Of a DNA stretch of 64,000 nucleotides, positions 51,749-63,886 are shown piece by piece. The notes under the pieces are model-generated. The model was not told where the DNA came from. It ran no database searches and saw only the letters and a list, made by a program, of their open reading frames with translations. Location: positions 76,632,001 through 76,696,000 of the forward strand of contig NC_083282.1 of the NCBI RefSeq assembly GCF_963506605.1, read 5' to 3'. Numbering within the stretch: position 1 is the stretch's first letter; each line of letters opens with the position of its first letter. This stretch comes from Zootoca vivipara. Its lineage: Eukaryota. A program made the translations under genes and the position numbers.

Positions 51749-52037
51749 CAGTGGCGGAGCTTCATGCTCCGGCACTGGGGGTGGGGCTGGCGCCCGTTCT
51801 GGGGGCGGGGCATGCCTCCCGGAGGGGCAGGGCACACGTTCCAGAGCCGTGGTGCGCCTCCCGGAGGGGCAGGGCGCACGTTCCGGGGGGTGGGGCGCGC
51901 CTCCTGGAGGGGCGTGACATGCGTTCCGGGGGCAAGGCGCACATTTTGGGGGCAGGGCGGGCGCCCGCGATGGTGCCCCTTGGAGCCCGCCGCTCGGGGC
52001 GGCCCGCCCCTAACCCCCCTATCTTCCTACGTCCCTG
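51749..52037. mobile_element. GC-rich non-autonomous hAT
   Basis: CAGTGGCGGAG ... CTACGTCCCTG; perfect 8-bp TSD GGAAGGAG; internal ~41-bp tandem gcctcccggaggggcagggcgcacgttcc. Confidence 0.82.
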
Positions 52038-52380
52038 GGAAGGAGCAAGGTTAGTTCTTTTACTAATGATCCTACAATATGTTTAGAAGGCCAATCCTAT
52101 ACCCATTTATCTGAAACTCAATGGGACTTTATTCTGAATGACCACGCATCGGATTGCACACTGAACTACTTTTTGTTTTAGATTGTCTACATTCAATAAG
52201 TTTATACCTTGCTTTTCCTACCAACAGTACTTTACACATCTTAAGACCCGGGGGGGGGGGGGCGGCAAGCTAGAATCAGATCTAGACCTTCCAATGTCAG
52301 TGGCTTTTTCTGGAATAAGGAGCCTGAAATGGAGCAACGAAAAGGCCCTGCTCTGTTATCCAGACATAGCAGACCAGGCT

Positions 52381-52595
52381 TAGGGTTGCCAGACTCAATA
52401 GAGGACGGGACTTCTGTGCCTTTAATTGCCCTGCTCTCTTTTGAGTCTGGAAACCTTAAAGAGAAACCAGCACACCCTTTGCTTGGAAATTAAACAAAGG
52501 GTCTGCTGGTTTCTCTTTAAGGTTTCCAGACTCAAAAGAGAGCAGGGCAATTAAAGGCACAGAAGTCTTGTCCTCTATTGAGTCTGGCAACCCTA
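52381..52595. mobile_element. Foldback hAT MITE (near-perfect 100-bp palindrome)
   Basis: TAGGGTTGCCAGACTC ... GAGTCTGGCAACCCTA; perfect 8-bp TSD ACCAGGCT. Confidence 0.93.
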
Positions 52596-53368
52596 ACCAG
52601 GCTTCCAGTATTTATACCAGGCATACTAATAAAGAGGCTGCATCTTGCCTGCTAATAGTAGGGACCGATGCTGCAGAGATTGCAGCATAGTAGGGAATGA
52701 CCTCTAGGTGCCTCTGTGCCTGACAATACCAGCTCCAGATCTGAAGAAGCCCTCAGCTAGGTTGACATCAGTGACCCTCCACCCAGCCATGAGCTTACCA
52801 AGCAAATGGGGCTTGCATTCTGTGCCTTTTAAATACGGTACCAATACAAGCCCTGGTGGGATTTTGTTCCACCTAGGAGCTCCCAAGTAGAGCTGACCCC
52901 TGCCCAAAATGTGAGGGTCCAGTTTTTGGCAAGAATCTTTGCAGGTGCAGCTTGAATTCAAGCCACAGCTGCACAGCTGACTCTTTCTCTGCAGCTCTGG
53001 ATTAAACTAAAGCCAAGGCCACAAATAAAGAATAAAGTATCGGAAGCAAACCTACAGTTAACTCCCAGTGACTGACAGGTGGACAGCCCCACCCACCTGT
53101 CACATGGCCCACGGAAGATCCAGCCCACCAATCGGGTCCAGTTCCCCACATCTGATGTGAACTGTAGAATTTAGCAAAATCCACCACATAGCATCTTGTT
53201 TTAATGTACCTTGTTAACATTTTTTTAAAAGGCTATTAGTGTTATAATTAAGACACAGGGCACGATTCATCCTATATGTTACTCCTGTTATCCAGGATAC
53301 AGCTCATCTACCTGTATACAGCTCCCCTATTCTGTGTTCAGAGCTCATTTCACATCCCCCTTTCTCAC

Positions 53369-54023: not shown

Positions 54024-54172
54024 TCTTTTGCCTTGATTGCCACAAGAAGCCGAAGAGGTCTCCGAGAGCAGAAAGACTGGTTCAATATCGTCTCCACCTC
54101 TTGAAATGGACGCAGGAACACCAGATCCTCATTCATGGAATAAATCTTCCGCCCAACCTGCAACCCAGCCAT
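54024..54172 (-). CDS. PREX1: PREX1 coding exon, PDZ1
   Basis: [49 protein letters not shown](E); tttcag / GTAAGT; 149 nt, phase 0-2. Confidence 0.96.
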
Positions 54173-56256: not shown

Positions 56257-56509
56257 CATGAGCTGCAGGGTCCAGTTGTGAGTGAGAGATGCAGGAAATA
56301 ATGGAACATTGAGCCCTATGCCTCTATGCCCATCACTTTTTGTGTGGTGCATATGAACACAGGTGTGCTAACATTTTTATGCATCAGATATATACCAGCA
56401 TGGCCTATGGAAGGAGCAGAATACTTAAATGGCTCAGCTGTGAGTTGCAGTCACTCACAGTCTTGAATTTCTATCTGGGCCTCAGACACCCAGGGATAAC
56501 AATACTCAC

Positions 56510-56674
56510 CTCCGTTACTGGTTTGCTGTAAAAAGTACTAAGTGCTACATAAATGCTGTTATTATATTCTCTGGCACCTGAAGAACTGCAAAACATGGTC
56601 CAGAACAGTTCCAATTCAGATCTGTGTAAGAGAACCTCATATACCCATCGTGTCTGCCTGTCCAGCACAATAAG
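56510..56674 (-). CDS. Candidate unannotated alternative exon of PREX1 (cassette 56674-56510, or first exon with ATG at 56596)
   Basis: Stop-free 165 nt between ctttttcttaatgcgcTAG and GAG|GTGAGT; phase 0-0 like the flanking exons; internal ggACCATG. Confidence 0.4.
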
Positions 56675-56719
56675 CTAGCGCATTAAGAAAAAGGATTGCT
56701 TTGGTTAAGATCTTTGTGG

Positions 56720-56843
56720 GTTTCCAGATAACCATGAGGCCTGCCAAATTCCCAGTTTTTAGATTAATCACTTGCATCTGCAGAACCTGCCTGTTGTTGC
56801 CTTTGGTTATGCAGATGGGAGCAGGCTAATGTTGCTAAGCAAC
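56720..56843. promoter_or_regulatory. RFX X-box-like motif cluster
   Basis: GTTGCTAAGCAAC (56831-56843), GTTTCCAGATAAC (56720-56732) and GTTGCCTTTGGTTAT (56796-56810). Confidence 0.4.
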
Positions 56844-57823
56844 GGCAGCACAGGGAGACAATACTGCATCTCTGGGTCTTCTCTCCCAAAACCTTTGGAA
56901 GGCAGAATGGAGGGAGATGGGATGCTTAACGCACCCCCATAAAGGAGCTGCACACACAAGTGGATACCCAGACTTCATATGCTGCTGCAGTAGCAAGAAG
57001 AGGTTCCCCAGCCTACTGAGAAATCCTGACAGGTGAACCTGTCACCATGATGTCACTCAGCAATGGACCAGCACATATGGAATCATCAGTCTGCAATAGA
57101 TGCCTAGGAGGAAGGGCTGCAGGCGGGGAATTAGCTGGGGGGAATGCCTTGTGCAGGGTTAATTAAGGGGCACAAAGTGGCCCGCTACCAGGACAGGGCT
57201 GATAAATGGGTCAGTGGTACATGCCAGGAGGTGGTGGCAAAATCTACCTCCAGGGAGGTAAGACCTGCTCAATTCATTATGTGTCATTATGTGGACCTGC
57301 CACTGGTGCCGCAGATAATCCAATCCAACCAGCACCTCATTGCTACTCCTTTCTCAAATTGTGCACACCAGGAATAAGGAAGAGCACTCCCTTGGACAAA
57401 CTGATAATAGTGCACAGTGTGCTAGGCTACGTCACCTCAGGACAATTGTATTAAGGGGTCGTCAACACACAGTGGCTTTCACCAGTCAGTGGCCAAATGT
57501 GGTGGTCTTATCCAGCTCAGCTGCACTGAGGGATCATCCTCAGGGCCTGCCCAACATTATTTAGCTCTACCTGAGGTGGAGCAGCAAATGCTGCCCACCA
57601 CCGCCGCAAACTCAGACAATATTCCTAGTACTACTGATTAAGCACAGAACTGGCTTTAAAGGAGAATTTTGTTTCAGATCGGTAGGTAGACCAAACATAA
57701 TCTACACTACTGCTCACTTGCCTCTTCTTTCCAAAGGACTCAACTCAACATATGAGTTCCTCAAACCCAAAAGAACTGAGGCAGGACCCTAACTGAATAT
57801 TTGCTAGAAGGCACGGTATATCC

Positions 57824-57949
57824 CAGGCATAGGCAAACTTGTCCCTCCAGATGTTTTGGGACTACAACTCCCATCATCCCTAGCTAACAGGGCCAGTGGT
57901 CAGGGATGATGGGAGTTGTAGTCCCAAAACATCTGGAGTTTGTCCTATG
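57824..57949. mobile_element. Palindromic hAT MITE (26139 family) inside an older hAT-like element (~57541-58096)
   Basis: ggactacaactcccatcatccct...agggatgatgggagttgtagtcc; right end degraded. Confidence 0.8.
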
Positions 57950-59766
57950 GATTTATACATGCTTTCTCTCCTGCTCCTCTTTTTTGGCTGCATTTACCCA
58001 TTAAGATTTACTTGTGTAACCTGATCAATTCATATCCCTCACCATCTGCTGCCCTAGACAGCTGCCTCTTTTTGCCTAATGTTAGGGCCGGCCCTGAAGT
58101 AGGTGGTTAGCCAGACCAAACACCTCAAATTAAAGGAGTGAAGAAAAGCACAGAAACAGGAAGTTTGTGACAGGAAAAGTCATTCCATCAGATTAGATGC
58201 TTTTAGTTGCCAATGGATCAAGAGGTCAAAGAATTTGGGAAGATGGGTTGCCTACTGTACAAATATGTGAATTCTTCCAGATTCAGAAAGGAAATGAGTA
58301 GATGTTACTCAGAACTAACTTAACGAAGCTGAACATATATTAAATCATAGTAGGCCTTTAACAGTGGCTAGATGTTTTTTCAGGAAAATAGTATTTGTAT
58401 AAAAGCCGATTTGTTCCTAACAAATTCAGAACTGAAGATGAGAACAAAGAGTTGGCTGATATCAATCTGAGGGTCACTTCCAATGTCACATTTTTGCTCC
58501 ATGAAGAAGCACATTTGGAAAAACACAAAACAGAATGTCATGAGTGTAAAATCTGCATGGATTTCATTCAAAAAGTCTGTAAACACTTTTTGCAGTCAAC
58601 TTCTGAGATGTTTCCTGAAAAGCCCTCGTCATTGTGAAATAACGTTTTACATATTCACTCTTCCATTGCTTAAAAATATTATGGAAGAATCTTCCTGGCA
58701 TGATTAGGAAGAATCAGAGTGACATAGCAAGCAGTAAAGAGATCCTTTGAATGTGTGTTTAATTTGTGTGCCAAGGGGTTGCAGAAAAACTGCAGAATGT
58801 GGTACTAGGTAAAGAATGCCAGCTTTCGTTTAAAAACAATAAAATAATTTCTAGTTCTTGAGGCTGTAAAGACAAGCTTGAAAATGTGCAGCAATGCCTG
58901 ATGAACTTTCAAAAGCCAGAATAATACTGAATAAAATATACTCAGTCAAAACTGGGGTTCCAATGCCTGCCCATTCCCTTCGCCAACAAAACCAGAATTA
59001 TGCAGAATAATGGGGAGGGGAAACCATTTCAGAGTAAGAAATATAAATGATAAGTGATTTGGATTTGCAGAGTTGAGATAATTTGCACAGGTCACAGAAC
59101 TTCTTATGGCACAGCATAAAGATTGCCTGGGTGCTGAGTTTTAGTTTAGGGCGGACTACCCTATCTATAATTAGGCCACACACATGAAACCTTATCTCTG
59201 TTCCATCACGTTTATTGTGATTAAAGTGAGAGTGGCTGACTCCCAATTTGGAGACCCCAGCTGGCCTGCCAAGCAAATTTTCCTGGCCCCTCAAGACCCC
59301 ACTGACTTTGGCTGTCGCAGCAAAAACCCCACAAAAATTAAAGCAGGCATAGCACTTGAGTGGAGAGGGGACCATAACCACCCTCCTCAGCTGATCTGAA
59401 TGGTGCCTGCACATGCACACCCTATGTGTATTCCATGCACACTGGTGTGAGAGAGAGCATGGGATGCCTTTTGCCGCACCCACGGCTGGCAGGTGACCTC
59501 TAGAGGGTTGGCCAGTGGTGAATGTGGCCCGCGGGCCGAAGAAGGCTAGCTACTCCAGCATTAAAGGCGAATTACGGTACTCAATCGGCTCAAAATGCTT
59601 TCCATGTTTACTATTATATTCTAATGGATTACTGAATATTGCTTTATTTTGTTTATGTCATTTGTTTTAAAGTTATGCTTTTACCTTGACTTTTTTTGTA
59701 TTGGATCAGATTGTTATCAGGTTGTGATCTTTGCTGTCTGTTTTGTTGTGTCTTCAGCCTGTAAAC

Positions 59767-59903
59767 CAGGCACAGGCAAACTCGGCCCTCCGGATGTTTC
59801 GGGACTACAACTCCCATGATCCCTAGCTAACAGGACCCAGTGGTCAGGGATGATGGGAATTGTAGTCCCAAAACATCTGGAGGGCCGAGTTTGCCTGTGC
59901 CTG
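59767..59903. mobile_element. Palindromic hAT MITE (26139 family)
   Basis: TIR CAGGCACAGGCAAACTCGGCCCTCC / GGAGGGCCGAGTTTGCCTGTGCCTG; TSD ctgtaaac / gcgtaaac. Confidence 0.87.
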
Positions 59904-60827
59904 GCGTAAACCATCATCGTGTAATATAGGAAGGTGGTATACAAATTAAAAGTGAAATGAAATGAAATCTAAAAGCTCAGCAATAGGAATGTGGGCACCA
60001 CCACATTCAGACTATTGGTTCATCTAGCTCATTACTGACTATAAAGACTGGGGGAGAGCGAGCCAAAAATGGATTTCTATTGGACACCCTGTTCTCCCCA
60101 TCCCTCCCCTCCCTGGAGAGCATCAGGCCACCAGAGGGTTTTCCAAATGGTCTGCAGCTGCTGTGCTGGCCTGGAACCATATGCCGGATAGCTTTGTAGT
60201 ATCAAAAAGCAATTAAAGAGCCCAAGAATGCAATAAAAGGCATTATTGCTAGGTTTCAAATCTTTTGTGAATTGAGCCGACGGCTCTCCTGTTCACCAGG
60301 ATTCGGATTGGGTTCATATTTAAAGCAGTATCTTAAGGCCAAATGGGAAAGAAGGGCAAATGGTCAAAGCAAGATTTTCTTCGAAGGTCAAGACAAAGAT
60401 TCCTTTGCAAATTGTGTGCTTCTGTAGTCTCAAAACAGAGAGAGATTTCCCTCCCCATCCCAACACTGAAATGTTCTATGTGGGCAGCTTTCCAAGGAAA
60501 TGACGAAGGGATTATCTGTCAGTCAGGCAGTGGCTTACCAAGAGGCTTGTATTCTGCTAAATCACGGTCTAGTGAAACATTTAAATGTAGTCAGTACTGG
60601 TATTTACAAAAATAAAAATAAAATAAATTCTGTAGCGTGCATTTGAAACTATAGAGCTAGTATTTGCAAATGGTTCCAGTGTTCCGAGGATGTAACACTT
60701 TTGCTTAATTTGCCTATTTCTTCCCTCTCTTGTGATCTCTAGCACACCTATGATTCTGATTCTGCACCTGTATATCCTGTGCCTAGTATCATTTACATAC
60801 TTTACGTCCCAAAATATTCAGAATAAG

Positions 60828-63793: not shown

Positions 63794-63886
63794 CTCTGCA
63801 TGTGACCCTCGACGAACAGACTTCACCACAATGGCTTTGTTCTTGTCTTCTATGTCGAAGCCATAGTCATCCTCTTCTGGCAAAAC
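63794..63886 (-). CDS. PREX1: PREX1 coding exon (first in window, about exon 17 by human numbering); start of PDZ1
   Basis: Translates [31 protein letters not shown], matching human PREX1 [31 protein letters not shown] as recalled; acceptor ttccAAG, donor GTGAAA; 93 nt, phase 0-0. Confidence 0.93.

Follow-up and report, generated by a model that had tools for sequence, protein, structure and literature searches.

PREX1 locus and intron 17

The 3' part of a PREX1 gene from a lacertid lies on the minus strand of the window, a stretch of 64,000 nucleotides that was analysed together with 200 kb of adjoining sequence (264 kb in all). The PREX1 identity, already proposed in the original prediction, is borne out by exon 18, which matches Podarcis and Zootoca proteins at 100%, and by a chain of 29 exons, whose translation is identical to the named Zootoca vivipara protein across 1259 aa; splice-site statistics use the 28 junctions of this chain. 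Exon 17 (63794..63886, minus strand) encodes the first half of the PDZ1 domain, and exon 18 (54024..54172, minus strand), which is placed by homologues and exon chaining, encodes the second half and has its own ATG at its start. Intron 17, which splits PDZ1 between exons 17 (63886-63794) and 18 (54172-54024), is 9,621 nt long, is bordered by two phase 0 junctions and contains no Rfam match. The first codon of exon 18 (54170-54172) encodes Met in 251 of 270 homologues and Val in 12. Of the two human RefSeq models, one has Val at this residue and the other Met, so an internal start at exon 18 would be allele-dependent in humans.

Palindromic MITE-like elements are found at 52380-52596, 57815-57938 and 59766-59912, with 94% self-complementarity over 219 nt at 52380; those at 57815-57938 and 59766-59912 are high-copy and abundant among RNA reads. 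Intron 19 has at 51775-51990 a GC- and CpG-rich 42-nt tandem array, which is probably repeat-derived and not a promoter.

Exon-like stretch in intron 17

Positions 56510..56674 of the minus strand form a candidate exon of 165 nt, which is free of stop codons in phase 0 and is single-copy in a genome search. Translation of the minus strand from 56674 to 56510 reproduces the 55-aa peptide that had been described, and the phase 0-0 match to the flanking exons, the lack of a recognised repeat and the superiority of the donor over the canonical upstream one also hold. This donor (56504..56512, minus strand, GAG/GTGAGT) scores 11.0 on a weight matrix and ranks first of the 478 GT sites in intron 17, while the real exon 17 donor scores 6.0; a score of at least 10.5 is reached by 6 of the 28 mapped PREX1 donors.

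At the other end, a pyrimidine run followed by TAG (56675..56694, minus strand) forms a putative acceptor, with a branch-point-like TTAAC at -34. The polypyrimidine acceptor claimed for this place is present and ordinary: by its number of pyrimidines it ranks 23rd of 638 intron AG sites, and it is level with the median of the 28 real acceptors. The open stretch begins exactly at the acceptor because the acceptor TAG is itself an in-frame stop codon.

An ATG at 56594..56596 (minus strand) lies in the same frame, 29 codons before the donor, and together with the 1018 aa that follow from exon 18 it gives the 1047 aa predicted for a product starting here. Five other ATGs (56777, 56735, 56683, 56648, and 56640), all out of frame or stopped, occur between this ATG and the X-box described below. 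The stretch has what a cassette exon needs, namely an acceptor, a donor, a length of 3n and a matching phase, and it also has what a first exon needs, a strong donor downstream of promoter motifs and a frame that fits exon 18.

These exon-like features are not beyond chance, and one such decoy per gene is unremarkable, because strong unused donors and open frames are common in PREX1. The gene body of about 235 kb has 32 unused donors scoring at least 10.5 on both strands, 13 of them on the sense strand, the candidate included. In 96 donor-phase trials, which include the candidate, an in-frame cassette is found 4 times, an in-frame ATG at least 20 codons upstream 15 times, and an open stretch of at least 55 codons 10 times; each gene should hold about 0.6 cassette-like decoys by chance. 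The codons of the stretch look intron-like: its score, -0.085, is under that of every one of the 22 coding windows of PREX1, which themselves served to train the scoring, and falls at the 73rd percentile among 834 stop-free intron stretches, and its GC3 is 0.42 versus 0.57.

RNA evidence

Seven of the 17 listed RNA runs were examined, none of which states its tissue; five of them express PREX1, whereas X10 and X11 have next to no PREX1 cover. X10, X11 and X12 are raw reads from the lizard species itself; the reads examined amount to about 6% of each raw run and give no cover near the X-box described below. Assembled contigs drop rare forms. None of the joints listed in the seven runs connects 56510 to 54172 or 63794 to 56674, a result that may not cover testis, since the tissues are not stated. 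All seven listed junction reads of X12 are canonical, joining exon 17 at 63794 to exon 18 at 54172, and this run has zero cover on the candidate. A contig of X7, with a depth of 44, also joins exon 17 to exon 18 over the entire intron, and none of the main PREX1 contigs of X1, X2, X3, and X7 (depth 23-67) continues from exon 18 to 56510.

In RNA the candidate stretch is found in low-depth unspliced sequence alone. A contig of X1, a run from the related organism A, covers 56451-57000 and runs unspliced 59 nt beyond the donor. The X7 contigs on the candidate have a depth of 3-6, the same as other intron pieces, and overlap the donor by less than 31 nt, so they are not counted as bridging it. The unspliced X1 and X7 contigs listed account fully for the bin depth at 56402-56542. 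Use of the stretch as an exon, as originally predicted, therefore finds no backing in the joints of these seven runs, in the homologues, which lack the peptide, or in the codons, which are intron-like.

Two contigs from the related organism B, X2 56601-56839 and X3 56643-56816, have one end at the X-box or just below it. They were not counted as evidence; they are 174-242 nt long, have a depth of 3-5, come from one study, were retrieved by this very stretch, and end short of the ATG and the donor. They are the clearest unique-intron cover in those runs. Organism B is gap-free across 56601-56674, and its four listed in-frame substitutions, a small sample, are two silent and two replacement changes.

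RFX X-box upstream of the candidate donor

RFX proteins recognise the X-box, whose consensus is the palindrome GTNRCY-N0-3-RGYAAC. The sequence GTTGCTTAGCAAC on the gene strand, at 56831..56843, agrees with this consensus and is the single perfect site in 264 kb. Two weaker X-box-like sites lie on the minus strand at 56796..56810 (8.7 bits) and 56720..56732 (11.4 bits), both scored with an approximate RFX matrix. With this matrix, which was built after seeing the site, the X-box region and the two weaker sites make the top RFX cluster of the 264 kb, about 320 nt upstream of the best donor of the intron. A CRE-like octamer, TGACATCA (57048..57055, minus strand), which we take to be a possible CREM site, is one of four such octamers in the window and is probably there by chance.

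The X-box is non-random, being a motif above chance and not repeat-borne. The exact 13-mer has 459 copies in the genome, versus 28 and 21 copies of two shuffled controls of the same composition, a 16-22-fold enrichment, so most genome copies are not chance occurrences; the expected chance share is about 5%. Roughly 7 of the 30 sampled copies are repeat-borne, and the flanks of the X-box in intron 17 differ from theirs. Two of the 30 sampled copies are CpG-island-like and none has a donor of at least 10.5 within 30-500 nt, which indicates that such sites mostly are not a promoter plus exon.

The sampled copies L024, L025, L030, L037, L041, L042, and L043 share flanks that are 72-84% identical, which suggests that RFX sites were carried through the lizard genome by an old repeat family. 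A comparison of 313 nt finds no difference between loci L032 and L044, which lie 45 Mb from each other on C1, pointing to a recent or an assembly duplication.

The position of the X-box relative to the donor bears on the possibility of an internal promoter. A donor of at least 10.5 lies equally near, on either side, at 52 of 600 random positions, and an X-box upstream of so strong a donor is a coincidence of about 1 in 20 on the sense strand; among the 32 decoy donors this is true of the candidate alone. The comparison of 52 of 600 random positions with the 6 of 28 real donors that are this strong gives a likelihood ratio of about 5 for a promoter, applied to a low prior. As originally predicted, the X-boxes favour a promoter with an alternative first exon over a cassette.

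Sequence conservation of the region appears marginal. Among the differences listed, none falls inside the main X-box; both weaker sites are mutated in organism B, at 56800 and 56721. In organism A, 18 of 546 positions differ around the stretch (3.3%) versus 87 of 1479 in other intron pieces (5.9%; p=0.011), a contrast that falls to p=0.14 once the most diverged piece is removed and that comes from a run found using this stretch.

Other RFX sites occur in the adjoining sequence, where coordinates continue from the window. Intron 1 has, about 28.7 kb past the PREX1 start codon, a strict X-box (226009-226023) that adjoins a CpG island (226251-227500) and could match the 5' RFX peaks of mouse Prex1 (+34.7 to +50.3 kb). 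The second-ranked RFX cluster of the 264 kb lies at 259507-260257, about 5 kb upstream of the CpG-island promoter of PREX1, and includes a strict X-box at 260204.

Homologues and the predicted truncated product

The canonical exon 17-18 junction is found in 258 of the 270 PREX1 homologues holding exon 18; the remaining 12 models read through an intron, skip an exon or are truncated, and the 55-aa peptide occurs in none of the 270. A protein search with the peptide gave no match, further searches gave two repetitive low-complexity chance hits, and no Pfam family matches it. No assembled or annotated protein begins with the N-terminus that a start at 56596 would give, and the named Zootoca, Lacerta and two Podarcis RefSeq proteins have no isoform suffix (15 of 20 cluster members listed).

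Both P0263, a fish gene model, and P0261, a partial fish protein, have the exon 18 Met as their first residue. They may be truncated models, and the Met is in addition just a conserved residue of the PDZ domain. AlphaFold gives a mean pLDDT of 42.6 for the truncated P0263 and 34.5 for a control with intact PDZ1, so both predictions are poor. A protein translated from the candidate first exon would lack the DH and PH domains, in keeping with the predicted catalytically dead product; it would also lose the DEP domains and a core IP4P strand, which weakens the idea that it acts as a scaffold.

Possible RFX regulation and proposed GEF-less forms in other species

The mouse Prex1 gene is about 150 kb long. 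Its expression is down in Rfx2-null testis at P30 (logFC -1.43, p 6.9e-4), with no ChIP peak at its promoter, according to PMC4498915 (Table S1). The same study places about two thirds of the RFX2 peaks of mouse testis away from promoters and finds RFX motifs clustered at the start sites of RFX2 targets. In PMC7498320 (Table S8), mouse Prex1 has intragenic RFX1/2/3 peaks at +34.7, +42.6, and +50.3 kb in ependymal cells, and the peaks then jump from +50 to +242 kb, which leaves none at the inferred position of intron 17. Together these mouse data fit RFX input to this gene. The lizard site differs from the ependymal peaks in its inferred position and in being a sequence motif. It resembles the intronic Rfx3 sites described in bioRxiv 10.1101/2024.09.24.614849 for mouse Triobp, which is an enhancer, and Myo1h, which is inactive in a reporter: in each case an X-box lies inside an intron and outside a CpG island, in a gene with mouse RFX peaks.

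GEF-less human PREX1 models from neighbouring introns are already in databases, unvalidated. In XP_047296290.1, a human RefSeq model of 1038 aa, six new residues precede the PDZ1 exon; in UniProt isoform 2 (CAB66514.1), of 956 aa, the join is at PDZ2. By Pfam, both have lost the DH, PH and DEP domains and have a short new N-terminus from an intron, as the lizard product would; in contrast to it, they start one intron upstream and one downstream, and have no sequence likeness to the lizard peptide. The testis form of another Rac-GEF, Tiam2s, reportedly keeps its catalytic domain, which the lizard product would lose. According to PMC6394906, Tiam2s is a short form transcribed from an intron 15 promoter, rises in spermiogenesis and opposes the long form; it is known from Northern blot and cDNA, and its 5' region runs directly into the next exon, while the lizard form is a sequence candidate.

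For P-Rex1 itself, the review PMC4601503 treats extra isoforms as unproven and a band of about 120 kDa as proteolytic. Isoform 2 is cited as being without the N-terminus (PMC5363633), and P-Rex2b is the sole splice variant named in the part of PMC11668296 available. The open literature yielded nothing linking PREX1, RFX2 and spermatids and nothing on a PREX1 intron 17 isoform.

Interpretation of the locus

The reading that we prefer, with a probability near 0.55, is that the perfect X-box and the two weaker sites form an RFX-bound intronic element of enhancer type, and that the splice decoy beside it goes unused. What is observed directly comprises the motifs and their enrichment across the genome, the single-copy flanks and the normal splicing of exon 17 to exon 18 in every PREX1-expressing run. 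From these we infer that the palindrome would be bound by a dimer of RFX proteins (RFX2/3 in germ cells or ciliated cells, RFX1/3 more widely), which would modulate the main promoter of PREX1, located about 198 kb upstream; local transcription, short or unspliced, may accompany this. The donor would be ignored by the spliceosome because no exon is defined upstream of it.

In a doubtful, still serious alternative, the X-box belongs to an internal promoter driven by RFX, likely by RFX2 in spermatids or else by RFX3 in ciliated cells. A first exon of about 300 nt ending at 56510 would then be spliced to exon 18, and translation from the ATG at 56596 (1047 aa) or from the exon 18 ATG (1018 aa) would give a protein without DH, PH, DEPs and half of PDZ1. 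The place of the top RFX cluster of the 264 kb just upstream of the best donor of the intron argues for it, as do the motif clustering at start sites and the fall of mouse Prex1 without a promoter peak (both in PMC4498915), the human models on either side of this intron, and Tiam2s (PMC6394906). Against it stand the absence of the joint from the seven runs and of any annotated or assembled protein with such an N-terminus, the five upstream ATGs, the intron-like codons, and the secondary X-boxes mutated in organism B; the fall in Rfx2-null testis may be indirect, because spermatids arrest, and the product would be left without a core IP4P strand and the DEPs. Still more specific, and decidedly improbable, is the proposal that lacertids use an RFX2 internal promoter to make a spermatid- or cilia-specific, catalytically dead P-Rex1 of 1018-1047 aa, which would keep PDZ2 and most of the IP4P-like domain and serve as a G-beta-gamma sink or scaffold.

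It is improbable that nothing here is functional, the palindrome being a chance or dead-repeat copy and the donor and frame being noise. Such a view draws on the roughly 5% of copies expected by chance, the share of about 7 in 30 on an old repeat, the marginal conservation and the missing mouse peak at the inferred intron 17 position (PMC7498320); the 16-22-fold enrichment, the lack of shared repeat flanks and the clustering with two weaker sites speak against it. Most improbable is an in-frame cassette of 55 aa between exons 17 and 18, splitting PDZ1. Its length, phase, median acceptor and TTAAC are compatible with it, and so is the gap-free alignment of organism B over 56601-56674. Nevertheless, the seven listed X12 junction reads and the X7 contig all skip the stretch, none of the homologues carries an insertion at this point, chance alone should supply each gene with about 0.6 decoys of this kind, two of the four listed substitutions alter the amino acid, and a cassette leaves the X-box unexplained; the PDZ1-breaking exon of the original prediction is thus left without support.

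Were the internal promoter real and its transcript translated, it would provide a natural GEF-less P-Rex1 at a time when GEF-independent roles are emerging, the RFX2-driven form would be the first validated GEF-less P-Rex1 isoform, and the question of whether the band of about 120 kDa is always proteolytic would be reopened. As an ordinary intronic element, which is the reading that we prefer, the X-box would tie P-Rex1, a protein of neutrophils, neurons and cancer, to the cilia and sperm programme, a link that is drawn from the fall of mouse Prex1 in Rfx2-null testis (PMC4498915).
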